Source: Patescibacteria group bacterium (GTDB lineage: Bacteria; Patescibacteriota; Doudnabacteria; UBA920). From it: a stretch of 64,000 nucleotides of DNA. The position numbers were made by a program, and so were the translations under genes. The DNA lies in the NCBI GenBank assembly GCA_013387205.1, contig WARV01000005.1:27924-91923 (forward strand), given 5' to 3'. Under the pieces are notes generated by a model. That model worked only from the letters and a program-made list of their open reading frames with translations. It had not been told where the DNA came from and ran no database searches. Within the stretch, counting starts at the first letter, position 1. The number at the start of each line of letters is the position of its first letter. Below are positions 10,481 through 49,211 of the stretch, piece by piece.

Positions 10481-10517
10481 AAAAACCGGACCCGCTTTTG
10501 GTTGGCGGGTCCGTGGG
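10481..10517 (-). terminator. Rho-independent terminator for the peptidase gene
   Basis: On the minus strand, cacggacccgccaaccaaaagcgggtccg is a GC stem followed by gtttttatttatt. Confidence 0.6.
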
Positions 10518-10532
10518 TGTGAGCGCTGGGTG

Positions 10533-30022: not shown

Positions 30023-31039
30023 TTATTCGTTTGCTAACTTATTATTTTTCGTTCTTTGCGCCAAATTTTCCGGACCTTTCGGCCCAGTCTTATCAATACA
30101 GTCTACATTCATTATATTCTTGGCACCGGCTGGCAGTTGGAAGCTTAGATCGTGGATATTTTTTTGGACTTCTTTTTCGGTAAGGGTTTGCATATAGCCC
30201 AGAATCTTATAATCCTTCAGCGCTTCCATGGGGTTTGTATGGTAAATCCATGGCTCCGAATGGTACCAGTCCTCTCCATCCTTTTTAAACTTAATTAAAG
30301 GCCATTTAGTAAGCTTTTTGGGCGGCAGGACGTCTTTTTGATCATCTATCAGGAAAACCTGGCAATGCGCCCGTCCTGAAGCATTAGGGATTATCCTGGG
30401 TTTGAGCAGTTCTTCCTTAACCAGCCTTTTTAAGCCGTAGCGGTTAATAAAAAAGCTGTGTTCCAGATCCAGGGCCGAATACCAGGTTTCCTCGTCGCTG
30501 GCGACGGTTGCCGGGATGATATTATCATCAATCGCTTTCTGGCAGATAAGACATTTAACCCCGTGCTCGTCGTACCAGGTTTCCTGGTCAGATACTGACC
30601 TGCCGCAAATAGCGCAGGAATAGCCCTGGCCTTCCAAATGGAATCCTTTGGGAAATTCTTTCAGTTTTTCTTTGCGTTTCCATTCTGTGAGGCCGATATC
30701 ATACATCACTTCAGCATACTGCTTCAGCCAAAATTCGGACTCGTTCAATTCTGATTCGGTCACCTCCCGGCCCGTATGCTTTTCCAGGATGTCTTTCAGC
30801 TCGGCTTTCATCTTATCCCTGTTTTTCTGCGCCTTGATTTCCGAAGACTTAGTCCGGTGTATTATTGGAGGGATGTAATGGGGAGGTTCTTTTAAGATTG
30901 GCTCTTGGGGTGCCGCTTTGAGAATATCGTCATTTTTTAAATCCGTTTTTAAAGCAGGCTGAACACGCACGGCTGTTCCGCACTGGCCGCAAAATTTATC
31001 ACCCATTTCCAATTTGTTGCCGCAATTCGTGCAGAACAT
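30023..31039 (-). CDS. Hypothetical protein with N-terminal zinc ribbon and an internal Cys4 cluster
   Basis: 338 aa. CTNCGNKLEMGDKFCGQCG at the N-terminus and CAICGRSVSDQETWYDEHGVKCLICQ internally. Separated from the HEPN-like gene by only 11 nt. Confidence 0.5.
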   Translation of the reverse strand: MFCTNCGNKLEMGDKFCGQCGTAVRVQPALKTDLKNDDILKAAPQEPILKEPPHYIPPIIHRTKSSEIKAQKNRDKMKAELKDILEKHTGREVTESELNESEFWLKQYAEVMYDIGLTEWKRKEKLKEFPKGFHLEGQGYSCAICGRSVSDQETWYDEHGVKCLICQKAIDDNIIPATVASDEETWYSALDLEHSFFINRYGLKRLVKEELLKPRIIPNASGRAHCQVFLIDDQKDVLPPKKLTKWPLIKFKKDGEDWYHSEPWIYHTNPMEALKDYKILGYMQTLTEKEVQKNIHDLSFQLPAGAKNIMNVDCIDKTGPKGPENLAQRTKNNKLANE

Positions 31040-34885: not shown

Positions 34886-35700
34886 TATTGTGGTACAGGC
34901 TGTTGAATTGCCCGCAGCTCTTCATTTAAAAACTGTTCAATTTTGGAATAGGTCGACTTTTGAATGCAAAACAAAATAAGGCCTGCGAAAGCACCTTCTC
35001 CTTTTATAGCAGTCAAGCGGTCTCGGACCGCCTCGTGGGAAATTTTATTCGTGATGTCATGGAATAAAACAGAAACTAAGATCGCGTTTTTCTTGGTTCC
35101 TGGAGTTTGTTGGATTTCAGTAATGTCCCCATCCAACAATTCCTTTACCTTTTTCCTGTCGCCCTGGGCCAAGCTTAGGCTGACGTCCATAATAACGCTT
35201 TGCCACAAGTTCGGCCGTCTCCCTTGAAGAAATTCCTGCATCGCAGTTTTTGACTCGTCCAGCAACTTTTTGTTTTTTGCATCCGGCCCCTCGTCGTTGC
35301 CGGTCTCGCCTGATTTAACTTCGCCATACCAAATAGCGTTGCCACTGACCTCAACATATGTCAGGTCAAATCCCTTTCTTATGCTCTGTTCTTCCTTATT
35401 AAAAAAGATTGTAATTTTTTTCAGGTTCGGCAAAAATTTATCAATAACGAGGTGGGCAATGAATTCTCCCATCATGCCTTTTTTTGTCTGCGATGACTTG
35501 CTGGAGTATCGCTTGATAAATTCAGCCAAAGTGTTTTTATACGAATGGATTCCCAGCGTAAATTCTTTTACTTCATTTTTGCCATGACAAATAGCGCTTA
35601 ATTCGCTTCTGATTAAGCCTTTAATTTCCTCGCTCAATTCGTTTATGTGGCAAACTACAAACCCGTCTTCTTGCGTAACGTTTATGCCCTTCATACGCAT
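34885..35700 (-). CDS. hamA: HamA-like (DUF1837-type) predicted PD-(D/E)xK nuclease
   Basis: 271 aa, the typical HamA size. Candidate catalytic core GFDLTYVEV ... YGEVKSG (D ... E-V-K). Directly coupled to the helicase gene. Confidence 0.55.
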   Translation of the reverse strand: MRMKGINVTQEDGFVVCHINELSEEIKGLIRSELSAICHGKNEVKEFTLGIHSYKNTLAEFIKRYSSKSSQTKKGMMGEFIAHLVIDKFLPNLKKITIFFNKEEQSIRKGFDLTYVEVSGNAIWYGEVKSGETGNDEGPDAKNKKLLDESKTAMQEFLQGRRPNLWQSVIMDVSLSLAQGDRKKVKELLDGDITEIQQTPGTKKNAILVSVLFHDITNKISHEAVRDRLTAIKGEGAFAGLILFCIQKSTYSKIEQFLNEELRAIQQPVPQ

Positions 35701-35822: not shown

Positions 35823-36254
35823 CTAACTTGCTTTTTGTCTAATGTTTACGCTGCGTAAATATTTGTAAAAGACAGCCATCCCGTCTGAATCCCCCGAAGG
35901 AACTAGTGAACCATTGGCATCCAGAGTTACGGTCAGCTGACAGGTTTTACCTGGGCGGTTGCCGTAAATCATATAGAGGATACCAGGGATGATAGCAAGC
36001 CAGAGCAGTAGAAACGCCACCAGGCAGCTACCTTTCTGGGCAGGAATAACTTTCTGGTAGCTGAGCAGAGTTGCGGATTTATTGGCCAGTACCCAGCCCC
36101 TACCATAAGAGGCCATGAATTGTTCAAATGACTGAAGATGGGTTTGATTAGCAGGTGTCTGCTGGCCGGAACCTTCGGCCAAATCCCGGTTGCAGTACTT
36201 GCAAAATACAGCAGCGTCCTGGATTTCCTCAAAACAAAATGGACATTTCTTCAT
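35823..36254 (-). CDS. Zinc-ribbon membrane protein (paralog 1)
   Basis: 143 aa. N-terminal MKKCPFCFEEIQDAAVFCKYC zinc ribbon, then a TM segment (CLVAFLLLWLAIIPGILYMIY). Confidence 0.5.
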   Translation of the reverse strand: MKKCPFCFEEIQDAAVFCKYCNRDLAEGSGQQTPANQTHLQSFEQFMASYGRGWVLANKSATLLSYQKVIPAQKGSCLVAFLLLWLAIIPGILYMIYGNRPGKTCQLTVTLDANGSLVPSGDSDGMAVFYKYLRSVNIRQKAS

Positions 36255-36258
36255 AGGG

Positions 36259-37416
36259 TTATTGATTGTTCTTTAACGCCGCATAAGTTGCCAGCACATT
36301 CTGCATAGCCGTCTTTTCTGCCGCTGTGATGTCGCGGTCTTTGTAGTACTTATCACCCTCGTAGCGCATCTTGGTTTTCGTTCCGGCAAGGACAGCGTTG
36401 ATAATTTTCATTTCGTCATCACCAACCAGGGTGACCGAAGTTTCCCAGACCGTGCTGTTATTATCCCGGCTGACTGAGAGCGGAATGTAGTTATAGTTTA
36501 CTCCGTCTATGTTGAAGATATATTTGTTAACGAACAGCCAGTCGTCGCCGTGGTAAGTCACTTTCATCCAGAGAGTCGGTTGTCCGTTATCCGGTTTGTC
36601 GATCAGCAGCATTACAACGCTCTGCCAATAGCTGGGAGGAAAGCCCTTGTCATAATAAGTCGTGGTCTTTTTAATATCATCATAATCAGAACCCATTTTA
36701 GACAGGACGGCTTTGGTCTTTGCGTCAGCTTCTGCTTTGGCCTTTGCCTGGGCTTCCTGGTCGACCTTGGCTTTAGCGGCAGCTTCAGCATCAGCCTGCG
36801 TCTTGGCTGTTTTTTCTTCCTCGGTGAAGATGCGTTTTACGCTTAAAGTATTAGTAGTCTTTTTGCCGCCATTAGTAGCAGTAATATTAATTTGGTTTCT
36901 GCCTTCGTTCGGGACAGGAGTCTGGTAATCAAAGCTGCCATCTTTTTGAACAGTAACTCGTTTATTGTTTATGAGCAGCATTGACCCTGCTGGATTGACC
37001 TTGCCTTTGACGCTGACTGTTTTGGCCTGGACGGTATAGCCACTCGCAGGTTCAGTAATAGTAAGGGAAGGCGCACGGCCTGCATAAGCAGTGGAGATTT
37101 TTAAAACCGCAAATACCAGGACGATAGCTACAGTGGCAATCGTGTTGGTCTTTGCGGTAAACTTGGTTTTTTTCCAGAGGAACCAGATTCCGGCACCTGG
37201 GATAGTCAGGTACCACAGGAACGGAGTTAGGATAACTAATAGCACTATAGCGGAAATCTTTAAGATCTTTTTGATTCCCGCTGACTGGCTTGGCATGTGC
37301 GGCAGGGCTGCCGCAACTGCTGGTTGTGCAGAGGCCGGGACAAGGCTCTTTTTGCAGTGCCTGCAAACGGTAGCCTGATCCTGGATGTCCTCGGCGCAAT
37401 AGGGACATTTTTTCAT
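36259..37416 (-). CDS. Zinc-ribbon membrane protein with extracytoplasmic Ig-like and A/K-rich segments (paralog 2)
   Basis: Start set at MKKCPYCAEDIQDQATVCRHC (13 codons inside the track ORF). Two TM helices, a beta-rich domain, then an AKAKAEADAKTKA-type low-complexity stretch. GC-rich. Confidence 0.55.
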   Translation of the reverse strand: MKKCPYCAEDIQDQATVCRHCKKSLVPASAQPAVAAALPHMPSQSAGIKKILKISAIVLLVILTPFLWYLTIPGAGIWFLWKKTKFTAKTNTIATVAIVLVFAVLKISTAYAGRAPSLTITEPASGYTVQAKTVSVKGKVNPAGSMLLINNKRVTVQKDGSFDYQTPVPNEGRNQINITATNGGKKTTNTLSVKRIFTEEEKTAKTQADAEAAAKAKVDQEAQAKAKAEADAKTKAVLSKMGSDYDDIKKTTTYYDKGFPPSYWQSVVMLLIDKPDNGQPTLWMKVTYHGDDWLFVNKYIFNIDGVNYNYIPLSVSRDNNSTVWETSVTLVGDDEMKIINAVLAGTKTKMRYEGDKYYKDRDITAAEKTAMQNVLATYAALKNNQ

Positions 37417-37440
37417 TGTAGTTTCCTTGATCGGTTTTTC

Positions 37441-37570
37441 CTGGCCGGATAACATAAAGGCCCCCGCCAGGAGCTCGACCCTTTCGGGCCGAACGCATGG
37501 GTTTCCCCATACGACCGATCAAGGAACCCTGACGAGGGGTTCTATATCTTGATCGGATTTTTTGACCATA
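37441..37570. other. GC-rich structured element (candidate ncRNA or structured 5' leader)
   Basis: An ~130-nt island of ~60% GC in AT-rich DNA. Long-range stem ccttgatcgg ... ccgatcaagg encloses ggcccccgccaggagctcgaccctttcgggcc. An extra hairpin gaaccctgacgaggggttc and a third cttgatcgg copy follow. The overlapping track ORF 37052-37522 is probably spurious. Confidence 0.3.
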
Positions 37571-37958
37571 TCCCTTAGAAGTATAAGGGGGTTAGGTCGT
37601 TGAGTTGTTAAGATAATTATACGACATTTAAGCCGATTAATCCAGTCCATTTTAACTTAGTATTGGAAGGTTGCGAAGTACTAGTTATCTACTGCTGTGG
37701 ATATCTTTATATTGACTCGATAGTGGGCAGTGCTATCATTTTATATAGAACAACTACATATAAAAACACGCTCGCCCGACTCTGATCCGGGGTCACAAAT
37801 TGCGGATCAAATTAATTATTAACGAATTACTTATTTAACTGAATTGGGGCTTGACACTTAGCTGTGTCAGGCTTACACCAATTCAGATTTTTTGTAAGCC
37901 GACCTAGCTTTGTGTCGGCTGTTTTGATGTGTGGCTAAAAATCATTAATTAGAACCAT

Positions 37959-39257
37959 ATGTCAACACAAAAAGGAACGAAAACAACTTGCTTGCAATGG
38001 CACAACGAAAAGCGCAGGGTCAAAGACCTGCTGCCGTGGGATAAAAATCCCAGAACTCTTTCCGAAGAGCAGGAAGAACACCTAAAGGAATCTATCTCCA
38101 AATTTAATTTGGCAGAGATTCCCGTAATCAACCTGGACAATAAAATTGCCGCGGGACATCAACGTTTGAAAATTCTGCATCTGCTCGGCAGGAGCAATGA
38201 GATAATCGATGTAAGGGTGCCAAACCGCAAACTGACCCAAAAAGAGTTTGAGGAGTATAACCTCAGGAGCAATGCAAACGTGGGCTCATGGAATTATGAA
38301 ATGCTTTTGGAGCACTTTGAGATCGACACTCTCTTGGAGATCGGGTTTGACGAGCAGGCTTTGGCAGACGTGTGGGATGGCATGCTCGAAACGGAGGACG
38401 ATAATTTGGACTTGGAAAAAGAAATCAAAAAAGCCCAGAGCACCAAAATTAAGCCTGGGGATATGTTTTCCTTAGGCAGGCACACTTTACTCTGCGCCGA
38501 TAGCCTTGAACTTAAAAACATTAAGCGCCTGGTCTGCAACCAAAAAATGGACGTGTTGTATGTAGATTTACCCTATAATACAAAACTCTCGTACTCTGAA
38601 GGCGTTGGCAAGAAGCGCAACTATGGCGGCCATACCAATGACAACAAAACCGATGCCGAATATGAGCAGTTTGTTACGACTATGGTTAGCAATGGATTGG
38701 CAGTTTCCAAACCCGATGTCCATAGTTTCTTCTGGTGTGATGAAAGGTATATTGGGTTATTTCAGAAAGTCTTTGCCAACTGCGGCATTAATTCGCTCCG
38801 CGTATGTTACTGGCTCAAGAACGGCTTTAACGTGACACCGCATGTGGCCTTTAATAAAGTTTTGGAAGCTTGCGTCTACGGTACGGTTGGCAAGCCCTAC
38901 TTAAATCCAAACGCTACAAATTTGCATGAGTTGCTTAACAAAGAACTCGGCACTGGTAACCAGTTGGCTGATGACATTTTGGATCAGTTTAACATTTGGC
39001 TGGCCAAGCGTGATGCCGGGCAAGATTACGAGCACCCGACCCAGAAGCCAATTACATTAGCCGAGCGCCCATTAAGGCGTTGCAGCAAACCAGGCGACAA
39101 TGTGCTGGACTTAACGGCTGGTAGCGGCTCGACAATATTGTCGTGCGAGCAACTTAAACGCCGCTGCTTTGCCTGCGAGATCGAACCAGTGTTTTGCCAG
39201 GTAATCATTAACAGATTTGAAACTTATGCCAAACAAAAAGTTAAAAAACTCAACTAA
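37959..39257 (+). CDS. ParB-like nuclease domain fused to N6-adenine/N4-cytosine DNA methyltransferase
   Basis: 432 aa. N-terminal ParB/Srx-like region (WDKNPRTLSEEQEEHLKESISKFNLAEIPVI). C-terminal MTase motifs: DLPYN (motif IV variant), HPTQKP, DLTAGSGST (motif I). Confidence 0.75.
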   Translation: MSTQKGTKTTCLQWHNEKRRVKDLLPWDKNPRTLSEEQEEHLKESISKFNLAEIPVINLDNKIAAGHQRLKILHLLGRSNEIIDVRVPNRKLTQKEFEEYNLRSNANVGSWNYEMLLEHFEIDTLLEIGFDEQALADVWDGMLETEDDNLDLEKEIKKAQSTKIKPGDMFSLGRHTLLCADSLELKNIKRLVCNQKMDVLYVDLPYNTKLSYSEGVGKKRNYGGHTNDNKTDAEYEQFVTTMVSNGLAVSKPDVHSFFWCDERYIGLFQKVFANCGINSLRVCYWLKNGFNVTPHVAFNKVLEACVYGTVGKPYLNPNATNLHELLNKELGTGNQLADDILDQFNIWLAKRDAGQDYEHPTQKPITLAERPLRRCSKPGDNVLDLTAGSGSTILSCEQLKRRCFACEIEPVFCQVIINRFETYAKQKVKKLN

Positions 39258-40008
39258 AGAAATTGAAATCAAATACGGTGACCAGTTTGCACTTGGCGAG
39301 CATAAGTTACTGTGTGCGGATGCCGCTGACACCAAAACCATTTCCGCTTTCATCGGCAACGCTAAAATCAGCCAGATAAACTGTGATGTTCCATACGGAA
39401 TTGAGTATGCCCAATCGAAGGCTGGCTTTGGCAAAATTAAGGTGGACAAGGAAATTTTAAACGACGATTTTGTCTCAGACAGCCAGTATGCAGCCTTTAC
39501 CAAATCCTGGCTGGATGCCGTGGTACCACACCTGGCCAAAAAGAATTCCGTGTATATCTTTAACTGCGATAAAATGTTGTTTGCCCTTCGTGACGGTATG
39601 CAGCAAGCTGGAGTGAAATTTTCCCAGCTTCTCATCTGGATCAAGAGCCAGGCAGTCATTGGACGCAAAGATTATCTGCCAGCCCACGAACTTATTGCTT
39701 ATGGCTGGGCCGGAACTCACGAGTTCCACCGTTCCAAAGACAAAAGCGTACTGTATTATCCTAAGCCTTCCAAAAGTCCACTTCACCCGACTCAAAAACC
39801 AGTTGGCCTTATTCGTAAGTTAATTCTGAATAACACGAAAATTGGGGATACGGTTTACGACTGCTTTAGTGGTAGCGGAACTTGTTTAATTGCTTGCGAG
39901 CAAACCAGGCGTAAATGCTTGGCGGTTGAACTTGACCCACAGTATTGCCAGACTATTATTACCCGCTACGAAAAATTAACAGGTATTAAGGCTAAAAAGT
40001 TAACTTAA
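39217..40008 (+). CDS. DNA methyltransferase (N6-A/N4-C, beta-class), paralog of the preceding MTase domain
   Basis: 263 aa. DVPYG (DPPY variant), HPTQKP and DCFSGSGT motifs. Overlaps the previous gene by 41 nt. Confidence 0.75.
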   Translation: MKLMPNKKLKNSTKEIEIKYGDQFALGEHKLLCADAADTKTISAFIGNAKISQINCDVPYGIEYAQSKAGFGKIKVDKEILNDDFVSDSQYAAFTKSWLDAVVPHLAKKNSVYIFNCDKMLFALRDGMQQAGVKFSQLLIWIKSQAVIGRKDYLPAHELIAYGWAGTHEFHRSKDKSVLYYPKPSKSPLHPTQKPVGLIRKLILNNTKIGDTVYDCFSGSGTCLIACEQTRRKCLAVELDPQYCQTIITRYEKLTGIKAKKLT

Positions 40009-40012
40009 GTTT

Positions 40013-40447
40013 ATGATTACCGACAAACAAAAACAATTATTACTTGAGCAATTGAGAAAAACGCCGATCATCCAGTTGGCTACTGAAAAAACCGGCATCT
40101 CTCGCATGACTTACTATCGCTGGAGACGGGAAAGCCAAAAGTTTAAAAGGGCGGCTGACGAAGCCTTGGCCCAGGGAGAGCTCCTGATTAACGATTTATC
40201 TGAAGGGGTGCTCATATCTTTAATTAAGGAGAAAAATTTTCAGGCAGTTTCCCTGTGGCTAAAACAACACCATCCTAAGTATGCGGCAAGGTTAGAAATT
40301 TCCGGCCGCATCGAGCATGAAGACGGCAATCTTTCGGCTAAGCAAAAAGCCATTATTAAGCAGGCCCTGCGCCTGTCTATGATTAACAAACAAAACTACT
40401 ATGAACAAAGAAAAGGAGTTCCAAAAGATCCAGCACTGGATGCTTAG
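40013..40447 (+). CDS. Terminase small subunit-like HTH protein
   Basis: 144 aa. HTH (LATEKTGISRMTYYRWRRE) and an LWLKQHHPKYA-type segment typical of phage TerS. Immediately upstream of terL and overlapping it. Confidence 0.5.
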   Translation: MITDKQKQLLLEQLRKTPIIQLATEKTGISRMTYYRWRRESQKFKRAADEALAQGELLINDLSEGVLISLIKEKNFQAVSLWLKQHHPKYAARLEISGRIEHEDGNLSAKQKAIIKQALRLSMINKQNYYEQRKGVPKDPALDA

Positions 40448-41900
40448 TGACATTAAAGTCAGGAGGGAAATCGTTACCAAAGACCACAGTTGGTTTTTCA
40501 GCTATTACTTAACCGGCCACCACGACCTGGAAACCGCCCCTTTCCAGCACGAGATGCTGGCTATCACCGAAGACCCAAAAGTCGATTTGGCGGTGATAAC
40601 CGCCTTTAGGGACAGCGGCAAAAGTACTATTTGTACCCTGTCTGGCGTATTGTGGTCGGTCTTAGGATGCCAAAAGAAAAAGCTGGTTATCATTATCGGC
40701 AAGACTTTAGACAAAGCCCAGACCCATCTGGTCAACATCAAGCACGAGTTGGAAAATAATGAGATGCTCAGGAAAGACTTAGGGCCTTTCCAAGAAATCA
40801 GTGGTCAGTGGGGCCTTCAGGCTTTGATTATTCCAAAGTACAATGCCAAGATCATGGTAAGCTCAGTCGGCCAATCCGTGCGTGGTGAAAAATATTTGCA
40901 AAGCCGCCCTGACCTGATTATTTTGGACGACGTGGAAGATCTGGAATCCGTCAAAACCAAAGAGAGCCGTGACGGCCTCTGGAACTGGTTTGTCGGCGAA
41001 GTCCTGCCTGCCAGAAGCCATAACAATTCCAAAGTCATCGTGGTAGGCAACCACCTGCACGAAGATTCGCTGCTTAAAAAGCTTCAAAAGAAAATTGAAG
41101 CCGGGGAAATTGACGGGATCTACCGTGAATATCCGATTATGGATAAAGATAAAAATCCCTTGTGGCCAGCCAGGTATCCTGACATGGCGGCTATCGAAGC
41201 CAAAAGAAAAAGTACTATGGACGAGCGAGCCTGGTACCGCGAGTTTTTGCTAATTATTCTGCCTGACGACGACCAAATCGTTAAGTCTGAATGGCTGCAG
41301 GAGTACGAACCTGGACAGCTTCCTGATAAGGATTTTCGCTATGCGGCGATGGGTGTGGATCTGGCTATCTCCCAACGCAGTAAGGCAGATAGTACCGCAA
41401 TAATTCCGGTTTATGTTTACGGAAACCAAGAAAACCTCAAAGTTTACCTGCTGCCACACCCAATCAACAAGCAGATGACAGGGTTGGAAACTTTGCAAAC
41501 ACTTAAAAATCTGTCTGACACTTTAAGCACAAGAGGCCGTGCCAAAATTTTTATCGAGAACAACGGCATGCAGCAGGTATTTGTTGAACAATTACAGAAC
41601 GCAGGATATCCGGCAGTAGGTATGCCTTCTTACGGCTCTGACAAACCGGGTAGGTTTAAATCCATCAGCCACTTGATCCAGGGAGCTAAAGTTTTCTTTC
41701 CCAAAGGGTGTTATCAAGAACTGCGGCAGCAGATGCTGGGCTTTGGCGTGGAAGCCCATGATGACTTGGTTGACGCCCTGACTTTACTGCTCCAAGGTGT
41801 AATGAAGGAAGATAGGCCAGCATGCAGGACTGGATGTTTTCCAGTGCCGACATGGTCAACCGGTAGGACTGAGTTCGGAAAAAGCATTGCGGTGTATTAA
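40401..41900 (+). CDS. Phage terminase large subunit
   Basis: 499 aa. Walker A AFRDSGKST, Walker B LIILDDVEDL, and a C-terminal RNase H-like nuclease region with conserved acidic residues (GVDLAIS ... EAHDDLVDAL). Confidence 0.8.
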   Translation: MNKEKEFQKIQHWMLSDIKVRREIVTKDHSWFFSYYLTGHHDLETAPFQHEMLAITEDPKVDLAVITAFRDSGKSTICTLSGVLWSVLGCQKKKLVIIIGKTLDKAQTHLVNIKHELENNEMLRKDLGPFQEISGQWGLQALIIPKYNAKIMVSSVGQSVRGEKYLQSRPDLIILDDVEDLESVKTKESRDGLWNWFVGEVLPARSHNNSKVIVVGNHLHEDSLLKKLQKKIEAGEIDGIYREYPIMDKDKNPLWPARYPDMAAIEAKRKSTMDERAWYREFLLIILPDDDQIVKSEWLQEYEPGQLPDKDFRYAAMGVDLAISQRSKADSTAIIPVYVYGNQENLKVYLLPHPINKQMTGLETLQTLKNLSDTLSTRGRAKIFIENNGMQQVFVEQLQNAGYPAVGMPSYGSDKPGRFKSISHLIQGAKVFFPKGCYQELRQQMLGFGVEAHDDLVDALTLLLQGVMKEDRPACRTGCFPVPTWSTGRTEFGKSIAVY

Positions 41901-41908
41901 AATGGCCG

Positions 41909-42604
41909 CTAACAAACGAATTTTTTCTGTTTTTTGCTGTATGAACACTTAACCGCATCAGTTTTGCCGTCTGATAAGCATTGCCTTACCAACTCGATCA
42001 GCTGGTCAGATATGACTTTGCCTTTTTGGTATGCATAATGGTAACCGAAGTTGCCTTTGCTCGGATGCGGTACGCCAATGATTTTGCGATTAGGATAAAC
42101 GTAAGCCAGTAACTCAAAAGCGTGATTGCCCACAGCAATCAGCGGCGTATTTTCCGGTATTAGAGAAATTTCTTTACTGAGGTAATTGCTGATGCTGTAG
42201 CGTATGGTGTTGAGAGATAAGGCTTTAACGTTTTTATTGCTTTGGCATTTAACTAATTCTGTCCAGAGGATTGGGCCGGTTAAACCAGTCTTGTCAGCCA
42301 AGTCCCGTAGCGGACCATAAAAATTTATATAGTCTTTGCGATTGAGTTCCCAGTAGCGCACAGCAGCTGGGTAATTTCGGTTTGCCTTGTCTGTAAAATA
42401 TATGGTTTCCTCCGGCCTTGCACGGCCAGGGTTCATGCCGACAATGATAGCACTTTTGCCCTTGCGGCCGTCTATTTCGTAGTAAAGGCATCGGGCGATG
42501 ATGCCTTGTTCGGGTTGGTAGTCGATATCAGAAAAGCTTTGCCAGGTTTTGTCATCCATCATGCGCTGGCCAATTACGGCGATTTGTTCGGAGATTGATT
42601 GCAT
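41909..42604 (-). CDS. Uracil-DNA glycosylase superfamily protein (MUG/SMUG-like motifs)
   Basis: 231 aa. Motif A IIVGMNPGRA and motif B GVPHPSKGNFGY are spaced ~130 aa apart, as in the UDG fold. Confidence 0.55.
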   Translation of the reverse strand: MQSISEQIAVIGQRMMDDKTWQSFSDIDYQPEQGIIARCLYYEIDGRKGKSAIIVGMNPGRARPEETIYFTDKANRNYPAAVRYWELNRKDYINFYGPLRDLADKTGLTGPILWTELVKCQSNKNVKALSLNTIRYSISNYLSKEISLIPENTPLIAVGNHAFELLAYVYPNRKIIGVPHPSKGNFGYHYAYQKGKVISDQLIELVRQCLSDGKTDAVKCSYSKKQKKFVC

Positions 42605-42610
42605 AGCTTT

Positions 42611-43261
42611 TTAAGTTTTAATTTTCAGAGGCATGCCTGCCTTTGTGACTTCCCATCCTTTCAAGTACCGAAAAAGAATCCCCGTAATTTCCATAAAAGC
42701 CATAAGCGCTTCCAGATAACCAGAGTCTGGTATAGCTTCGTCCATGGAGCTGATTTTAATCACTACAGTATGTTCGGATTCGTTGGGTTTGCTCAAAGCA
42801 TTGGCAAAATGTTTGTCCGAAAGATGGATGTATCCTGAAGTATGTTCGTAGACATTTTTTAATTGCGGGTACTCCTGGGCAAGGCTTTCGATAAGGTAGC
42901 CGTCTTTTAGTTTTCGGCCATCTTTATCTTTCAGCGTATTAATTTTGGTTCCTTTAAAAACTTCCATGGCAAAATCATGAAGATCTTTTACCAGCCACGC
43001 TGCTCGGTAGCGCAGTAAATTATCCAGTTGCATGCGAATCAGCGGGGCTGCGGCTATAAAATTATGTTTTTCAATCAGATCGCAGAATCCCGACATTAGG
43101 CATAATGAGCGGTTCATGACTGCAAAAGAAAACAGATCCATAGGATACAGTTTTCCATCAGCTGCCCTCATTATTTTTTCTCCCACTTCTTTATGGTCAT
43201 TGACCGTAGAACGCAGACTTGCAATTGCTTGCTTGATTTTGTCAGAAAGCTCTATTTCCAT
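42611..43261 (-). CDS. Hypothetical protein
   Basis: 216 aa with no motif recognised. The gap to the UDG-like gene is 6 nt and to the HEPN-like gene 20 nt. Confidence 0.45.
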   Translation of the reverse strand: MEIELSDKIKQAIASLRSTVNDHKEVGEKIMRAADGKLYPMDLFSFAVMNRSLCLMSGFCDLIEKHNFIAAAPLIRMQLDNLLRYRAAWLVKDLHDFAMEVFKGTKINTLKDKDGRKLKDGYLIESLAQEYPQLKNVYEHTSGYIHLSDKHFANALSKPNESEHTVVIKISSMDEAIPDSGYLEALMAFMEITGILFRYLKGWEVTKAGMPLKIKT

Positions 43262-43281
43262 GTTTTTGTCCCAATGGCTAA

Positions 43282-44619
43282 TTAAGAAATTTTTACCAGT
43301 AGTAATGCTATGACATTTTCCATTGATTTAAATACAAGCGACAAAGTTTTGTCATCTTTTAAAATAAATCCTTTATGAGCATAAGCGCACCGTAATTTGT
43401 AAAGATCATTAAACCACGGCAGCAATTCCGGCTTTAGCGCATGAATGCCGCCGACAATATATTTCTTGTTGTCGCTATTCACATTTTTAGGTACAAAAAG
43501 GTGTTCCAAGCTGCAATACATAAGCAAAATTTTAGCGCCAAGATCTGGAATCTGAGTGGCAGAACTCAAGATGTCCAGCGTAGGTTGAATATCATTGACA
43601 CTCCTCTCAGTCCAAGGGTTTTTCAAGCTATCCAAAATTTTTTGGTTTTCTAAAAAGAACTTTTCTATTCCGCCAAACGTACGATCGTCGATATACATCT
43701 TAGCCAGGCCTCGGTAGCCGTAAGACAAAAACAGGCAGCCATCGGGCGTCTTTAGCCAAGGTTCTCTTTTGTCTTCGTCCCAACTAAAAACTCCCAAGTA
43801 GCCGCTGTTTAGAAGGACAGGCGAAGTTGGCGCTTCCAGCCTAACGTCAGATTGCCCGAAATCCATCTGTGGCCGGTAGATGAAACTGGCGATTCGCAGC
43901 ATATTAAAAAAAGTTCTGAGCCAAGCGGAAGCGTACCAGTAGGCATAAGTCATCGATCCTTCGGTTGCAAATCCTATGGAAGGAGAGTGAAAAAAATTTT
44001 TGGCTTCTTTTTTATTATACTGTCGTAAATGGGGTTGGTATTGTTGATGTTTGGCAACAAGCTGGCTGGCTTTCAAAAAACAGACAAACGGCAGACTAAG
44101 TTTTGCAAATAAGCCGTCAAAAAATGCCTGCACGTCTCCAAATGGAGTATCGAAATACGAGACTGTGGTTACTAACGTCTGCGATTGAACAAATCCTTTC
44201 AAGCGCTCGAAATATTCCTCAATGATTGCCTGATATCCTTTTGTTTTATCACGCCAAGGCACTACGAATTGACTTTCGTCAACATACGACCCGCCCCCAA
44301 CCCTTTTGTGATATTCCTTTTCATCACTAAATTCAAAAGCCATTTTGCAGCGAAATAAAATATTAGTTACGTCAGCGGGAGAAATTTTCAGGCCTTTATC
44401 GACGAAGTATTCGCACTCTTTCTGTATTAAAGGCAGCAAAAAACGCTGGTGATAATATTGTTCTTTACCCCATTTATCAACGGGTGGCATCAATTTGGCA
44501 AGAGAGGCTTCTGTATCAGCCACTCGCTCGAGATGTAGCCACATCTGCTCACCAATTTGGTTTTTGACGGTTTGTAAAAAAGAAGTCGGCATAGATATAT
44601 TGTAGCACTTTTCGGCCAA
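43282..44619 (-). CDS. Hypothetical protein with C-terminal HEPN-like Rx4H motif
   Basis: 445 aa. The C-terminus NDLYKLRCAYAHKGF contains RCAYAH (R-x4-H), analogous to the motif in the 28878-30011 protein. Confidence 0.45.
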   Translation of the reverse strand: MAEKCYNISMPTSFLQTVKNQIGEQMWLHLERVADTEASLAKLMPPVDKWGKEQYYHQRFLLPLIQKECEYFVDKGLKISPADVTNILFRCKMAFEFSDEKEYHKRVGGGSYVDESQFVVPWRDKTKGYQAIIEEYFERLKGFVQSQTLVTTVSYFDTPFGDVQAFFDGLFAKLSLPFVCFLKASQLVAKHQQYQPHLRQYNKKEAKNFFHSPSIGFATEGSMTYAYWYASAWLRTFFNMLRIASFIYRPQMDFGQSDVRLEAPTSPVLLNSGYLGVFSWDEDKREPWLKTPDGCLFLSYGYRGLAKMYIDDRTFGGIEKFFLENQKILDSLKNPWTERSVNDIQPTLDILSSATQIPDLGAKILLMYCSLEHLFVPKNVNSDNKKYIVGGIHALKPELLPWFNDLYKLRCAYAHKGFILKDDKTLSLVFKSMENVIALLLVKIS

Positions 44620-44722
44620 ACTAGCGGCTTTTCCTTAGCTTTCCGGGGTCTGGACTTCCTCTGCAATTTGAGTCATTCCTTTGATTGTGAGTGATATTTT
44701 GTATATAATTAATAAAGAAGCT

Positions 44723-45643
44723 ATGTCAAAAATTACAAAACCTGTGTTAATAACAGAATATGGACACCTTTATAAGGGTGATTGTTTACAGATAATGAGA
44801 GGGATAAAATCTGAAAGCGTTGACCTGTTTTTTGCCGACCCTCCATTTAACCTGAATAAATCTTACGGGAATGGTGTCAGGGATGACTTGCAGGAAAGCG
44901 AATATCTGGAATGGTGCCACAAGTGGATTGATGAAGGCGTGCGCGTCCTTAAACCCGGAGGTTCATTTTTTCTCTATAATATTCCCAAATGGAATGTCCA
45001 GCTGGCAAGCTATATTTCCAAGTCTTTAAATTTCCGGAGCTGGATAGCAATAGAAATAACTTTTTCTCTTCCGATTAAAGGCAGGCTATATCCGTCTCAT
45101 TACTCCTTGCTCTATTTTGTAAAAGGTAAGAAGCCCAACACTTTTGAACCGCCAAGACTTCCAATGCAGGTTTGCCGTCACTGTGGTGGGGAAATAAAGG
45201 ATTACGGCGGATATAAAAATAAGATGAATCCCAAAGGGATCAACTTATCTGATATCTGGACTGATATACCGCCCGTTAGGCACAAGAAGTACAAAAATCG
45301 CGAAGCCAATGCTCTAAGCCTAAAACTGCTCGACAGGATCTTGGATATGTCCTCTAAAGAAGGTGATGTAATACTAGACCCTTTTGGTGGCAGCGGGACG
45401 ACTTATATAGCAGCCGAATTGAAAATGCGGAAATGGATTGGAATGGAGATATCTACCACTGATGAAATCACGAGACGATTTAAGAGCATGGCCAAGGATA
45501 AGGAATACTATGACTGCTTAAGAGAAAATGTAAATGTTTTATTTACAAAGAAAGCTTTGGAATTACGAAAAAAACACGGCCACCATAACGGTAAGTACGT
45601 GCTTAGCGAAACAAATATTACAAAACAAAAAGCGTTGTTCTAA
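44723..45643 (+). CDS. DNA methyltransferase (N4-C/N6-A, beta-class) of a candidate type II R-M pair
   Basis: Start set at MSKITKPVL. Motif IV FADPPFN, motif I DPFGGSGTT. A CxxC ... zinc-finger insertion (CRHCGG) is present. Confidence 0.75.
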   Translation: MSKITKPVLITEYGHLYKGDCLQIMRGIKSESVDLFFADPPFNLNKSYGNGVRDDLQESEYLEWCHKWIDEGVRVLKPGGSFFLYNIPKWNVQLASYISKSLNFRSWIAIEITFSLPIKGRLYPSHYSLLYFVKGKKPNTFEPPRLPMQVCRHCGGEIKDYGGYKNKMNPKGINLSDIWTDIPPVRHKKYKNREANALSLKLLDRILDMSSKEGDVILDPFGGSGTTYIAAELKMRKWIGMEISTTDEITRRFKSMAKDKEYYDCLRENVNVLFTKKALELRKKHGHHNGKYVLSETNITKQKALF

Positions 45644-45646
45644 AAA

Positions 45647-46291
45647 CTATAATAAGGCTCTGCCATCCGTACCTTTTGGAATGCGCGGAGCTTTTTTATT
45701 TAGTCCGTCCTGCTCTACTACAATAATATAGATTACACCATTTTTGTACGGGATACTTTGCCAGAGCGGCAGGTATGGCGCTATTTCCCTGAAGTTACCG
45801 ACCCGGTCAGTAAGATAGGGATAGAGATTTGTAGATGGTAAAACCAATACTCCACCGGCGAGTTCTTTATTTAAAACTCCTAAGCAGATTTTATTCAGTG
45901 CCCTGTGGCTGGATGATATATTGCCAGTTTCCCATTCAATAGCAAACAGACCGAAAGGTGTTTCCCGGACAGCATCAAGAGGGCCTGTACCGGCCACTCC
46001 GCGCGGACGCAGGCGCAATTCATCCTTCCAGCCCTTGGTTTTCAAATAAGTTATACAAGCTTCTTTGATAGGTTTGACGCCGTTTCCCTCACCACGGCCT
46101 TTGCCTTTTGAGTTAGGATTTAAGTAAAAACCAGCAGAACCGGGAGGCCAGGAAATTTTACTAATCGCAGCCTTTATCTCTTTTTCTATTTGAACCATTA
46201 TTAAAGAGCGCGGTAAAGGACCTTTTTTCAAAATATATTTTGTATCAACGATTTTCATATTTCTGGCTAAAGTATAAATTAATTGTATCAC
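45647..46291 (-). CDS. Putative type II restriction endonuclease (BamHI/BglII-like D...ExE signature)
   Basis: 214 aa. LDAVRETPFGLFAIEWETGN gives D ... E-W-E, as in BamHI-like catalytic cores. Convergent with the MTase gene. Confidence 0.4.
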   Translation of the reverse strand: MIQLIYTLARNMKIVDTKYILKKGPLPRSLIMVQIEKEIKAAISKISWPPGSAGFYLNPNSKGKGRGEGNGVKPIKEACITYLKTKGWKDELRLRPRGVAGTGPLDAVRETPFGLFAIEWETGNISSSHRALNKICLGVLNKELAGGVLVLPSTNLYPYLTDRVGNFREIAPYLPLWQSIPYKNGVIYIIVVEQDGLNKKAPRIPKGTDGRALL

Positions 46292-46390
46292 TAAATTTAC
46301 CAGCAGTCACTACCAAGCCCATCAAAGAAAATACGACGTTTTTCCTAGCTTTGCGGGGTCTGGACTTACTTTGGAATTAGCGTCATTCCT

Positions 46391-47731
46391 TTGCTTGTAG
46401 AGATTATTAACTTTTACAAGCATATGCAAGCAAACCAAGGGGTTTTGGCGGGCAGTGTTGAGTACTGCCTGTATGCTCGGAAAAGTACCGAGCAGGATGA
46501 GCGACAGGCTTTGTCCATTGATTCCCAGATCAAGGAAATGATGAGCCTGGCCGAGCGGGAGAACTTAACTATTAAGGAAATCAGGCGGGAGAGCCATTCA
46601 GCAAAAAACTCCGGCTGTAGGCCCGTATACAACGAGCTGATTTTAGATGTCCGAAGCGGCAAGTTTTCGGGCATCCTGACTTGGGCACCGGACAGGTTAA
46701 GTAGGAATGCAGGTGACTTGGGAGCCATTGTGGATTTAATGGATCAGGGTCACTTAAAGGAAATCAGAACCCACGGCCAAAGGTTTACCAATTCGCCGAA
46801 CGAAAAATTCTTGCTAATGATCCTTTGTAGCCAGGCTAAGCTGGAAAACGACAACCGGGGCATTAACGTCAAGCGTGGCCAAAAGACCAAAGTGGAAATG
46901 GGTATGCGGCCATGCATGGCACCACTGGGATACCTGCAAATCATGGACGGCCGAAGCAGAAGGAGCAAGACCATAGTAGATTCAGAAAGAGCGCCCATAA
47001 TCAAAGACATTTTTGAATACGTAGCCTACGGCCACGCCTCAGGCCGGGACATTCTAAAGTGGATTAACAACAACACCAATTTTAAAACCCGAAAAAATAA
47101 ACCCGTAGCTTTAAGCATGGTCTATAACATGCTGAGAAACCCATTCTACTACGGCGAGTTTGAATACCCCAAAAACAGCGGCAAATGGTATCATGGTTTG
47201 CACGAGCCGCTGATTACCAAAGAGCTGTTCGACAAAGCCCAAGAAAAGCTGGATCAGGCACCCACAGCCAAAAGTTGGAACGCCAAGGTGTTTGATTACA
47301 CCAAGCTATTCCAGTGCGGCGTGTGCGGCTCTGGGGTTACAGCGCAGGAAAAGTTCAAGAAAATCAAGGACGGCAGCATGAGGCGGTATGTCTACTATAA
47401 CTGCACGGGAGGATTAAACCGGGAGTGTAAACAGCCATATATTAGGGAAGAAGAGCTGCAAAGCCAGCTGCTGGAATTAATCGACCAGGTCAACCTTGAT
47501 CAGATGGGTATCCAACAAAAAGTCATCGAGGAAGTGGAACGGTACAAAAAGCTGCTGCATGGCGTATTCGGGCAAAAAGACCAGCTAATTAAAATGTACG
47601 AGGTAGACCCCAAAGCTTATGCCAAACACATTCTTAGAGAGGGAACCAAAGACGAAAAGCGGGAAATATTATCCTGCTTTAAGGACCAGATTTACCTTAA
47701 GGACAAAAAGATTTATCTAAGTAAAAAGTAG
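46391..47731 (+). CDS. Large serine recombinase (resolvase N-terminal domain + recombinase domain + zinc ribbon)
   Basis: 446 aa. N-terminal YARKSTEQDERQALSIDSQ (catalytic Ser region), DRLSRN motif, recombinase-domain segment YGHASGRDILKWIN, and C-terminal CGVCGS ... YYNC zinc ribbon. Confidence 0.85.
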   Translation: MLVEIINFYKHMQANQGVLAGSVEYCLYARKSTEQDERQALSIDSQIKEMMSLAERENLTIKEIRRESHSAKNSGCRPVYNELILDVRSGKFSGILTWAPDRLSRNAGDLGAIVDLMDQGHLKEIRTHGQRFTNSPNEKFLLMILCSQAKLENDNRGINVKRGQKTKVEMGMRPCMAPLGYLQIMDGRSRRSKTIVDSERAPIIKDIFEYVAYGHASGRDILKWINNNTNFKTRKNKPVALSMVYNMLRNPFYYGEFEYPKNSGKWYHGLHEPLITKELFDKAQEKLDQAPTAKSWNAKVFDYTKLFQCGVCGSGVTAQEKFKKIKDGSMRRYVYYNCTGGLNRECKQPYIREEELQSQLLELIDQVNLDQMGIQQKVIEEVERYKKLLHGVFGQKDQLIKMYEVDPKAYAKHILREGTKDEKREILSCFKDQIYLKDKKIYLSKK

Positions 47732-47739
47732 CTCCTAAA

Positions 47740-48759
47740 TTAAGCCTCAAGAAGTTTTGCCCGAATTTCATTTAAATGGACCGATCCGGACTGATCGGGC
47801 GGAAATATTTCTCTTAACGAATACGGAAAATATCCGCTAATGGCTGGCCAGAGGCGGTATGAATCAATAATAAAATTCCCGGCTTCAAATTTGTCCGGCG
47901 CTGTAGTTGTCAAAATATATAATTTTAGACCGTGATTTTTGGCCGCATCCCAGATAATTTTATTGACATGCTTATCGTGAAATCCGTAACCGATGACCAG
48001 CAATTTTTTATTGCCTTCCTTGAGGACAGCCTTAAATAATTCCAGATAATACTTCAGTAAGGGCTCGTTGTTTATTTCTTGTTCCTTGTTGACCCCAATA
48101 ATCATTTGGCTGCCGCCGTGCGCCGACCTCCAGCCGAACGAGCCATGCAGTTTTATGTAATGTAGGGTGTTAGTATTTTGAATAATTTCTTTTTCAGCCA
48201 AATCAGCGGCATTTTCGCCCGGCAAGGTAACGGAGTAAGTTGGCAAAAATTCCCTTTGTGATAGAGTAGTAAACTCCTGAGGGAATCTCGGCGCACCCGG
48301 GGACATAAAATTGTTTCTTCTTTCCATAAAGATATCCTGATTTAAGGTGAAAAAGAAACCTCTCTCTGAGGGAGTACCTACAAACAGATTCAAAAGCTCG
48401 CCAAGCTTATAAGTGTCTAAGGAGGTCGGATTATCGTCGTTCATCTGCCATGTCCGTATGGAATCGTCGAGTTGTTTGTAAACTTGTTCCATCACTGACT
48501 GCAAAACTTGCTTCTCTTCTTCAGTAAAAGCCGGGGTAGGCAGGCTGGTATTACCATCGCTATCAATTCCATGCACGACTTTGGAATAAACAGACTCGAA
48601 ATCATAATCCATGCTAAGCAGATTTTTGATACGTTCTTGCCGACTAATCTGAGCATGGTTAAAAATCTTTGACCACATTTCGCGGGCAAGAAAACCATTG
48701 AAGTTTTTGGTAAATCCAGCTCCAGTCAGTAAAACAAGGCGTTTTGAGGCAATAGGCAT
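47740..48759 (-). CDS. SIR2_2-family (Sir2-like NADase-type) protein, standalone
   Basis: 339 aa. LLTGAGFTKNFNG (Rossmann GAGxS), FTLNQD (TxNYD-like), IKLHGS (catalytic His) and LLVIGYGFHDKHVN. Confidence 0.7.
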   Translation of the reverse strand: MPIASKRLVLLTGAGFTKNFNGFLAREMWSKIFNHAQISRQERIKNLLSMDYDFESVYSKVVHGIDSDGNTSLPTPAFTEEEKQVLQSVMEQVYKQLDDSIRTWQMNDDNPTSLDTYKLGELLNLFVGTPSERGFFFTLNQDIFMERRNNFMSPGAPRFPQEFTTLSQREFLPTYSVTLPGENAADLAEKEIIQNTNTLHYIKLHGSFGWRSAHGGSQMIIGVNKEQEINNEPLLKYYLELFKAVLKEGNKKLLVIGYGFHDKHVNKIIWDAAKNHGLKLYILTTTAPDKFEAGNFIIDSYRLWPAISGYFPYSLREIFPPDQSGSVHLNEIRAKLLEA

Positions 48760-48770
48760 GCGGGATAAAT

Positions 48771-48920
48771 TTAGTGTTCAATATTCCTTTCCTCTTCTGG
48801 CGACATCAGCAAACCTCCACCGCACACCGAACAGTCAGCAATATCAATAGTGACCTCTCGCCATTGCTGGCAATCCGAACAAAACCTTTTTACCACTAGT
48901 TCTCCGTTTTTAAATCTCAT
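48771..48920 (-). CDS. Small zinc-ribbon protein (49 aa) upstream of the SIR2-like gene, below the ORF-track cutoff
   Basis: MRFKNGELVVKRFCSDCQQWREVTIDIADCSVCGGGLLMSPEEERNIEH (CxxC ... CxxC). Stop lies 11 nt before the SIR2 start. An extended -10 (TGGTAAAAT) sits 6 nt upstream of the ATG, suggesting a leaderless transcript. Confidence 0.3.
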   Translation of the reverse strand: MRFKNGELVVKRFCSDCQQWREVTIDIADCSVCGGGLLMSPEEERNIEH

Positions 48921-49034
48921 AATAGTATTTTACCACTATATGAGATAAGGGGGAATTCGCGCCACGTAAGTATCGAACCAAAAATTATACAGCCTTTACC
49001 GCAGTTCTAGACCGGAAAGCATCAAGGACAAATT

Positions 49035-49067
49035 TAAAAACCATGGGGACAAAATTTCCATGGTTTT
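49035..49067. terminator. Bidirectional terminator-like palindrome
   Basis: aaaaaccatggggacaaaatttccatggttttt is a 10-bp stem with an A-run on one side and a T-run on the other. Confidence 0.5.
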
Positions 49068-49136
49068 TAAATCTTTGGACTGTTAATACAATAGTTTTGT
49101 TGGAAGACACTACGGTCTTCCAGAACCAAGTATTAG

Positions 49137-49211
49137 TGGCTGGGGTGGAAGGATTCGAACCTTCGAATGGCGCCTCCAAAGGGCGCTGCCTTACCACTTG
49201 GCGACACCCCA
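49137..49211 (-). tRNA. tRNA-Gln (anticodon UUG)
   Basis: 75 nt: UGGGGUG acceptor with U1:A72, D-arm GCCAAGUGGUAAGGC, anticodon stem GCGCC/GGCGC with loop CUUUGGA, T-arm GAAGGUUCGAAUCCUUC, discriminator G, encoded CCA. Confidence 0.8.

Follow-up and report, generated by a model that had tools for sequence, protein, structure and literature searches.

The sequence treated here is a 64,000-nucleotide stretch of DNA, referred to as the window, from a Patescibacteria group bacterium (assembly GCA_013387205.1, contig WARV01000005.1, positions 27,924 to 91,923). It carries a phage-derived integrated element that abuts the 3′ end of a tRNA-Gln gene and holds genes for DNA packaging, methylation, recombination and defence. 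The Patescibacteria, or Candidate Phyla Radiation (CPR), make up a large share of bacterial diversity; their genomes are of ~1 Mb and hold few CRISPR systems, and little is known of the mobile elements and phages associated with them. A sequence-only reading had described such an element, running from a ParB-methyltransferase fusion to a SIR2-like gene and tRNA-Gln, and all of its gene calls are borne out by open reading frame (ORF), tRNA and profile searches.

The core of the element is a single plus-strand string of genes that encode a ParB-methyltransferase (ParB-MTase) fusion, a second methyltransferase (MTase 2) that is missing from many relatives, a TerS-like protein, TerL and a large serine recombinase, without virion, lysis or replication genes. 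The first gene (37959-39257) encodes a ParB-like N-terminus fused to an N6/N4 MTase (phrog_620, 4e-16; PF01555, 1e-22; phrog_498, 1e-77) and displays the motifs NPR...GHQR, DLPY and DLTAGSGST, the last of the FxGxG type. It is followed by the second N6/N4 DNA methyltransferase (39217-40008) and by a 144-amino-acid TerS-like helix-turn-helix protein (40013-40447; phrog_4044, 1e-7; HTH_Tnp_1_2). The TerL gene (40401-41900; phrog_38, 1e-76; Terminase_6C, 1.5e-5) has its probable translation start at 40440. Its product combines an N-terminal ATPase with the acidic residues of a C-terminal RNase H-like nuclease, as is characteristic of Caudoviricetes terminases; Walker A (FRGSGKS), Walker B (DDVED) and the nuclease residues D320 and D454/D455 are invariant in 20 homologues. 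The recombinase gene (46391-47731), which probably starts at ATG 46424 rather than at the annotated start, matches Resolvase (PF00239), Recombinase (PF07508) and Zn_ribbon_recom (PF13408), all above the cut-offs, and retains the catalytic motif YARKS.

Capsid, portal, protease and tail genes had been reported as missing, and they are. Pfam searches of 20 ORFs in or beside the block and of 10 larger ORFs of the window gave no such domain, and a PHROGs scan of nine ORFs, all inside the block, gave no virion gene. The tRNA-Gln(ttg) gene, found by both ARAGORN and Rfam, is at 49137-49211 on the minus strand with its 3′ end toward the recombinase.

A sister element is present in metagenome GCA_020026565.1, on contigs L016 and L162 (L numbers designate loci of the comparison), with 87-89% nucleotide identity; the recombinase is 89% identical to that of L162. 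The ratio of nonsynonymous to synonymous substitutions (dN/dS) relative to the sister is 0.042 for ParB-MTase, 0.052 for MTase 2, 0.032 for TerS, 0.038 for TerL and 0.027 for the recombinase; it is 0.053 for a 143-amino-acid Zn-ribbon gene described below. The housekeeping control, the host YceG gene compared with the sister-population contig L098, gives 0.033. Judged by these codon comparisons, the core genes are under strong purifying selection and are constrained like a housekeeping gene.

Related elements across CPR bacteria

For comparison, 80 IMG/VR loci found with a TerL profile were combined with loci from large contigs of metagenome-assembled genomes (MAGs), and these were analyzed by tBLASTn and protein clustering. 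The co-linear plus-strand order ParB-MTase, (MTase 2), TerS-like, TerL, cargo where present, and recombinase is displayed by 51 of the 83 TerL-anchored loci, the window included. Protein clusters identified by Pfam as portal plus MuF, prohead protease S78 and HK97 capsid are found in none of these 51 element-type loci. A further 21 TerL-anchored loci have portal, protease and capsid genes directly after TerL and are ordinary tailed phages.

Members of the family span many CPR classes at 40-60% amino acid identity. The best named relatives of TerL and of the recombinase come from Uhrbacteria, Yanofskybacteria, Kuenenbacteria, Komeilibacteria, Peregrinibacteria, Paceibacterota and Saccharimonadales. 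The same-strand gap between TerL and the recombinase, taken over 42 loci, is at most 200 bp in 20, 0.8-1.3 kb in 11 and 2.2-8.3 kb in the remaining 11. Three loci seemed to have no recombinase; a recombinase-anchored scan placed it, in all three, 10-20 kb downstream on the same contig and strand. When the scan was reversed and anchored on the recombinase, 68 loci were found, and in nearly all of them the recombinase gene is preceded by a same-strand ParB-MTase/TerS(/TerL) block. Two large contigs, one of 1.1 Mb from Saccharimonadales and one of 0.78 Mb from Paceibacterota, have the module amid housekeeping genes with no virion genes nearby. The window block is thus an intact member of a widespread CPR element family. 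The family is apparently previously undescribed: a full-text literature search found no description of it, with partial coverage, so that this absence is no proof.

Tandem or paired modules on single contigs are common. Seven IMG/VR contigs of 25-55 kb have two modules or two recombinases each, in tandem or inverted arrangement: 3300033402_000781, 3300032737_000190, 3300014205_009253, 3300042286_000458, 3300000970_000154, 3300014208_000734 and 3300009873_002614. These contigs are filed as viral though they are without virion genes. The same holds for many loci of this kind in IMG/VR, which is of relevance to the use of this database.

A phylogenetic classification of TerL had been proposed in the sequence-only reading. 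In a neighbor-joining tree of 82 TerL sequences, which is distance-based, midpoint-rooted and carries no support values, element-type and phage-type sequences split without exception, and the window TerL falls in the element clade. The best TerL match among GenBank phages is only 26% identical, so there is no cultured relative. One phage contig, L089, has the order MTase-TerS-TerL followed by portal, protease and capsid, and its TerS-like protein belongs to the same cluster as that of the window; this order is plausibly the ancestral layout. The family recombinase is not present in the rest of this phage contig (L163).

Variants of the terminase genes are instructive. In L170, the TerL slot (1780-3060) is occupied by a 426-amino-acid protein that is unrelated to the family TerL by HMM and hhalign comparison and matches solved TerL ATPases (PDB 4zni, 3e-11; also D6E TerL and T4 gp17). 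The same slot in L172 (8529-9854) has an unmatched 441-amino-acid ORF of similar size, which is probably a non-orthologous TerL like that of L170. Eight loci (L174, L176, L179, L188, L189, L196, L198 and L212) have ParB-MTase, TerS and the recombinase but neither TerL nor a remnant of it; its place is taken by ~1 kb of sequence that is partly conserved and contains no long ORF. TerS without TerL is the classical satellite strategy, and the range from TerS alone to TerS plus a TerL, here of one or the other of two types, is known among phage satellites (the phage-inducible chromosomal islands, PICIs, with the Staphylococcus aureus pathogenicity islands, SaPIs, and the capsid-forming cf-PICIs). 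Because TerL is swapped non-orthologously in the same slot and TerS is kept without TerL in eight loci, the packaging function seems to be what selection conserves. Some members (L024, L027, L029, L033, L036 and L085/L214) have two TerL genes in tandem ahead of the recombinase; the second is a paralogue that directly follows the first and shares 40-45% identity with the TerL of the window.

These data bear on the origin of the element. The sequence-only reading had offered a decayed prophage turned into a defence island as one explanation, that is, an inert remnant which lost the interior between TerL and integrase and now serves as a landing pad for defence genes. One deletion in a prophage of the order attL-MTase-TerS-TerL-...-int-attR would leave just these two ends; the MTase-TerS-TerL-portal order does exist in L089, no excised form has been seen, and the synonymous divergence (dS) resembles that of the host. 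However, more than 50 loci from various CPR classes share the minimal gene set at 40-60% amino acid identity, the element TerLs are separate from those of phages, dN/dS is 0.03-0.05 with catalytic motifs intact, and TerL has been non-orthologously replaced in the same slot. Such conservation in genomes of ~1 Mb is not expected of an inert remnant, and decay is a very improbable explanation. The comparative data favor the other possibility raised in that reading, a satellite-like element that retains terminase genes.

It might also be considered that the MTases, TerS and TerL together form a defence system, restriction-like or acting as a packaging decoy, in which TerL would be an ATP-driven nuclease effector, the MTases would provide self-protection and the whole would be carried on a serine-recombinase cassette. 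The module is always found amid defence genes (type I, II and III restriction-modification (R-M), Hachiman, reverse transcriptase, CBASS cyclase, GmrSD, PDC-S11, SIR2 and TIR), it combines one or two orphan-looking MTases with a nuclease-ATPase, and one locus, L165, keeps it without the recombinase. Yet TerS and TerL have no PADLOC match, the identical MTase-TerS-TerL block opens the morphogenesis operon of a real phage (L089), the eight loci without TerL retain ParB-MTase, TerS and recombinase, and the number of MTases varies. A defence role of the core is therefore considered improbable.

Boundaries, tRNA target and cargo slots

The limits given earlier for the block, 37600-49136, hold at the right end, which is at tRNA-Gln, but not at the left. 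The unit is larger: the block common to the sister element begins at ~35.82-35.89 kb and takes in a LOOT RNA and two minus-strand Zn-ribbon genes identified by Pfam. One of these encodes 143 amino acids (35823-36254) and the other 398 amino acids with a Glucodextran_B/Ig-like domain (36259-37455); the latter probably starts at ATG 37419. Positions 35890-41902 of the window are 87% identical to L016. Further left, similarity to the sister-population host contig L098 breaks off exactly at the YceG start codon, 32369, from which the variable region extends; beyond YceG, L098 has genes for a 375-amino-acid protein, Mrr_cat and a 384-amino-acid protein where the window has Hachiman. The element thus extends from ~35.8 to 49.2 kb, and possibly from 32.37 kb.

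At the right end, the interval between recombinase and tRNA contains a conserved segment of 186 bp (48951-49136; 84% identical to L162 1424-1609) that presumably holds the recombination site. In the sister element, the recombinase gene runs straight into the counterpart of this segment, followed by tRNA-Gln, and homology on this side ends at the 5′ end of the tRNA gene. Fragments that resemble the 3′ half of a tRNA, with the T-arm motifs GTATCGAACC or GGATTCGAACC, are found between the recombinase stop codon and the intact tRNA in the window (48951-48980), in L020 (~6445-6468) and in L035 (~5030-5045). These may have been left behind by earlier site-specific events or may belong to attachment (att) sites.

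The position relative to tRNA genes is constant. A tRNA gene follows the recombinase in 20 family loci, and in all 20 this gene is encoded on the minus strand and points its 3′ end toward the recombinase, at a distance of 94 bp to 5.6 kb; tRNAs for Gln, Ser, Glu, Asp, Arg, Trp and Asn are represented among these 20 loci. A partial tRNA-Gln duplicate had been anticipated near 37.5-37.9 kb. No such duplicate or att repeat is present anywhere in the window, with up to 3 mismatches allowed, nor was an inverted copy of the right-end 23-mer or a terminal inverted repeat found; six other loci have no tRNA-end direct repeats. Serine recombinases cross over at 2 bp, so the lack of a tRNA-Gln fragment or terminal repeat is as expected. 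In L072, a direct repeat of 325 bp (322-646 and 14678-15002; 87-92% identical) that ends 6 nt inside tRNA-Ser bounds a 14.3-kb unit with ~3 kb of cargo left of ParB-MTase. In L072, two related elements thus seem to have accreted in tandem at a single tRNA.

Comparison with related genomes had been proposed as a means of finding the empty site, and none was found. A contig scan anchored on YceG gave relatives of at most 54% identity in Patescibacteria MAGs with no synteny, and a metagenome scan with the short-chain dehydrogenase/reductase (SDR) gene to the right of the tRNA gave at most 68%, again with no synteny; an empty tRNA-Gln site was not among the sequences recovered, and only fragments of one sister population were (GCA_020026565.1: L016, L098 and L162). 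It had further been suggested that an unchanged gene order in related genomes would mark the region as ancestral. This needs qualification. The sister core is also beside tRNA-Gln, so the core is older than the split of the two, but the cargo differs at three or more junctions and other members of the family reside at many tRNAs.

Site-specific insertion at a gene's 3′ end, tandem arrays of composite make-up and the turnover of cassettes recall the staphylococcal cassette chromosome (SCC), and the best NCBIfam match of the recombinase is CcrB (127 bits). The locus might accordingly be an SCC-like serine-recombinase island that accretes cargo, with the terminase operon as one more inherited block. 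The CcrB score, however, is far under the cut-off of 900, the terminase operon accompanies the recombinase invariably instead of varying like cargo, and the replication genes of SCC (cch or polA-like) are absent. This explanation is judged scarcely probable. SCC does share with the element a large serine recombinase, a conserved-gene 3′ end as target, tandem composites, modular cargo and the lack of transfer machinery of its own; it differs in having no terminase/MTase operon and in targeting rlmH instead of a tRNA.

Comparison of close relatives shows that anti-phage cassettes are exchanged at fixed slots. One slot follows TerL and precedes the recombinase, another separates the recombinase from the tRNA, and a third is to the left of ParB-MTase. 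The loci L043, L045 and L046, for example, are 83-94% identical, yet their genes between TerL and recombinase differ. Elsewhere in the family, cargo or neighboring genes include type I and III R-M systems, an Eco57I-type MTase with PLD-SNF2, reverse transcriptases, AAA_15 ATPases, GmrSD, TIR with a caspase-like protein, a cyclase of the cyclic-oligonucleotide-based anti-phage signaling system (CBASS) and PDC-S11 nucleases.

In the window, the first slot, between TerL and recombinase, has two cassettes. The first (41909-44619) is a minus-strand operon that encodes proteins of 445 amino acids (43282-44619) and 216 amino acids (42611-43261) and a member of the uracil-DNA glycosylase (UDG) superfamily (41909-42604; Pfam 2.7e-7). 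The sequence-only reading had called this a UDG-like/HEPN-like trio. The UDG match stands, as does a conserved Rx4H motif (RCxYAH) at the C-terminus of the 445-amino-acid protein, where R410 is invariant and H415 at least 90% conserved among 17 homologues. The trio as a conserved system does not, and is rejected for now, in that the closest homologue of the 445-amino-acid protein (L167) has other neighbors. This protein family is rare, with 71 representatives among 1.84 billion. Neither the 216- nor the 445-amino-acid protein has a match in Pfam, PDB or PADLOC; for the latter, a profile of the 17 sequences likewise gave none in Pfam or PDB, HEPN profiles included. Single-sequence AlphaFold2 models of the two have a mean confidence (pLDDT) of 36-37, too low for use.

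The second cassette of this slot (44629-46398) is a type II R-M system of the BamHI type, with an MTase gene at 44681-45643 on the plus strand and a restriction endonuclease (REase) gene at 45647-46291 on the minus strand. The matches of the REase (PF02923, 7e-52; PADLOC REase_II, 2e-55) and of the MTase (MTase_II, 7e-132) place the pair in the BamHI-family type II systems. A 60-nt direct repeat (44629-44688 and 46339-46398; 85% identical) flanks the cassette. It is a duplicate of the recombinase leader together with the beginning of that gene, so that the R-M MTase gene starts within a leader copy. The sister contig L162 has a single leader copy with different DNA upstream.

The second slot (47719-48950) carries a minus-strand cassette with a SIR2-like gene (47740-48759; SIR2_2; PADLOC SIR2, 1e-16) and a gene for a 49-amino-acid Zn-ribbon protein of the form CxxC...CxxC (48771-48920). 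The cassette, 1232 bp long, has been inserted where the recombinase gene has its last codons: the flanking positions 47718 and 48951 are contiguous in L162 (1423/1424). With junctions marked by a slash, the window reads ...GATTTATCT/AAGTAA...GATAAG/GGGGAATTCGCGCC and the sister ...GATTTATCT/GGGGAGTCGCGCC.

On the left side, a minus-strand Hachiman pair is encoded by HamB (32408-34885) and HamA (34885-35700), with Pfam matches to HamA (3e-8) and DEAD/ResIII/Helicase_C and PADLOC matches to HamB (2e-71) and HamA (4e-6). As is typical of Hachiman, HamA (DUF1837) adjoins the HamB helicase, here with a 1-nt overlap. Left of the Zn-ribbon genes, the window has this pair where the sister contig L016 has a 1629-amino-acid DUF4011 helicase. 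Hachiman is either variable left-arm cargo or part of a neighboring hotspot.

A candidate phage satellite with its own terminase

The reading favored here is that of a helper-dependent phage satellite that encodes its own terminase; we infer this from the gene content, distribution and conservation of the family and assign to it a probability of about 0.55. The element would stay integrated by means of its serine recombinase. Infection by a related tailed phage of CPR bacteria, or induction of such a phage, would switch on the packaging operon, by way of a LexA/CI-type repressor in some relatives and past leader terminators in the window copy. The two MTases would methylate the DNA against restriction in the next host, while TerS and TerL would recognize a pac site of the element and fill procapsids of the helper with element DNA, either of the excised element or, in situ, of the adjacent cargo. 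The outcome would be spread of the element with its defence cargo and a drop in helper yield.

In its proposed manner of working, the element is most like PICI-type satellites, yet it falls outside them by their usual definition. Like PICIs and SaPIs, the elements are small (6-17 kb) integrated islands without capsid, tail or lysis genes, with anti-phage cargo; in several relatives, though not recognizably in the window, a LexA/S24 repressor gene faces away from the operon, much as PICIs often have a repressor that responds to SOS or to the helper. The combination of an own TerS, which redirects packaging, with the lack of virion genes, by which PICIs are recognized, is found here as well. The tyrosine integrase by which they are also recognized is not; it is replaced by a serine integrase. 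A primase or rep-ori module is lacking, a complete TerL is present in most members, one or two MTases, one of them fused to ParB, head the operon, and the hosts are CPR bacteria. The cf-PICIs likewise encode both TerS and TerL, so that packaging is exclusive to the satellite, but they add HNH, portal, protease, major capsid and head-tail connector genes, none of which is found here or in more than 50 relatives.

Two other known systems share single traits. As in the defence hotspots of P2/P4 and of prophages, unrelated defence systems swap between close relatives at fixed intergenic slots of a conserved backbone; the backbone, host and integrase differ, and the slots here flank the recombinase gene, at its leader with the 60-nt duplication and at its last codons. 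The skin element with SpoIVCA and SPbeta with SprA of Bacillus subtilis are phage-derived islands with terminase genes and a large serine recombinase; these keep many structural and lysis remnants, interrupt a host gene and belong to a single lineage, whereas the CPR family has a streamlined five-gene core and is widely radiated.

Several observations weigh against a helper-dependent satellite. No helper phage was identified. No circular form, direct terminal repeat (DTR) or recombinase-to-ParB-MTase junction beyond tandem arrays is found in any of ~130 IMG/VR loci, and repeat searches in the window did not locate a left att site. No recombination directionality factor was recognized, nor, in the window copy, a divergent repressor, and neither the window element nor its minimal relatives have a primase/helicase-rep plus ori replication domain. 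The TerS assignment comes from weak profile matches (1e-7). Other satellites that encode TerL, the cf-PICIs, bring their own portal; the TerL of this element would have to dock on a foreign one. The dS of the core genes is 0.42-0.95, close to the 1.14 of the host, so that inheritance of the window copy may long have been vertical. Finally, L165 (JGI Ga0376277_0000094, 553 kb; 7595-11443) has a ParB-MTase/MTase/TerS/TerL operon amid housekeeping genes, and there is no serine recombinase within 10 kb of these four genes. This hints at an immobilized copy or at a benefit at the level of the cell or host.

Some of these observations would fit a resident packaging platform that benefits the host. 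The integrated pac site, TerS and TerL would start headful packaging in situ into capsids of a helper or of the gene transfer agent (GTA) type, in a form of lateral transduction that exports cargo and neighboring chromosome, and the recombinase would mainly shuffle cassettes. The cargo is indeed downstream of TerL along the direction of transcription, a replication module is absent, dS is comparable to that of the host with the sister core also at tRNA-Gln, L165 has no recombinase within 10 kb, and in L169, L192 and L202 the module is inverted relative to the recombinase. The constant placement at tRNA 3′ ends, the tandem arrays and the variety of tRNA targets, however, argue for repeated site-specific integration of a mobile unit. 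A platform of this kind is unlikely, though it deserves to be kept in mind.

A wider proposal, which goes beyond the helper-dependent satellite as such, is possible and is offered tentatively. The elements may represent the first satellite-type mobile family in Patescibacteria. Their five-gene core, in which a complete terminase is combined with methylases and a serine integrase while capsid and replication genes are missing, would then be a satellite architecture of a new class. They may ride in capsids of CPR phages or drive lateral transduction from an integrated pac site, and may be a main builder and exchanger of defence islands, with LOOT as leader or regulator of the cargo cassettes. 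If this is true, it would explain how defence islands are assembled and moved in CPR bacteria, and would place a new class of gene content beside known satellites: P4, PICI, cf-PICI, the PICI-like elements (PLE) and the phage-inducible chromosomal minimalist islands (PICMI). As the element TerLs point to a specific group of helper-candidate phages, they would also provide a testable handle on the interplay of phage, host and satellite in CPR bacteria.

LOOT RNA, operon leader and neighboring features

A LOOT RNA (RF03000), a name we take to stand for Latescibacteria/OD1/OP11/TM7, is at 37476-37598 on the minus strand (77.5 bits versus a gathering threshold of 46.4; model positions 1-121). It immediately precedes the Zn-ribbon operon, on its 5′ side, and is oriented away from the packaging operon. 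LOOT was also found in nine related loci: L016 (6835-6957), L018 (6663-6784), L022 (5517-5639), L026 (6967-7081), L031 (1287-1423), L056 (8442-8559), L059 (5520-5654), L071 (16354-16475) and L072 (9153-9278). All 10 copies are 17-76 nt 5′ of an ORF on the same strand, inside or beside a terminase-recombinase element, and the ORFs encode Zn-ribbon/Ig-like membrane proteins or a PD-(D/E)xK PDC-S11 nuclease. This placement suggests that LOOT is a cis-acting regulatory leader of element cargo that is tied to the family. Rfam types LOOT as "sRNA", an orphan motif, which hereby gains a genomic context. A weak terminator-like hairpin (37474-37460) is present between the window LOOT and the likely start ATG 37419.

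The packaging operon has an unusually structured leader of 360 nt (37599-37958, plus strand), with a fold z-score of -3.6. It contains a promoter-like site at 37712-37739 (TTGACT-16-TATCAT, with an extended -10), and two terminator-like hairpins are between this site and the ParB-MTase ATG. The stem of the hairpin at -62 is kept in L016 by a compensatory change. The hairpins may provide an antitermination-type control. Over the family, hairpins upstream of ParB-MTase are found in ~12 of 38 loci and are not enriched relative to the opposite strand (14 versus 11). Six other members (L053, L071, L080, L081, L088 and L164) have a LexA/S24 repressor gene divergent from ParB-MTase.

Elsewhere in the window, Pfam identifies HisRS, PfkB, peptidase M28, a PIF1 helicase and YceG/MltG. 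A further Zn-ribbon protein gene (30023-31039) is beside YceG; its product belongs to protein cluster c14, other members of which adjoin terminase-recombinase modules in L025, L051 and L079. The sister contig L162 (GenBank JAHQYO010190536.1) starts, at positions 1-19, with an untrimmed Nextera transposase adapter, AGATGTGTATAAGAGACAG.

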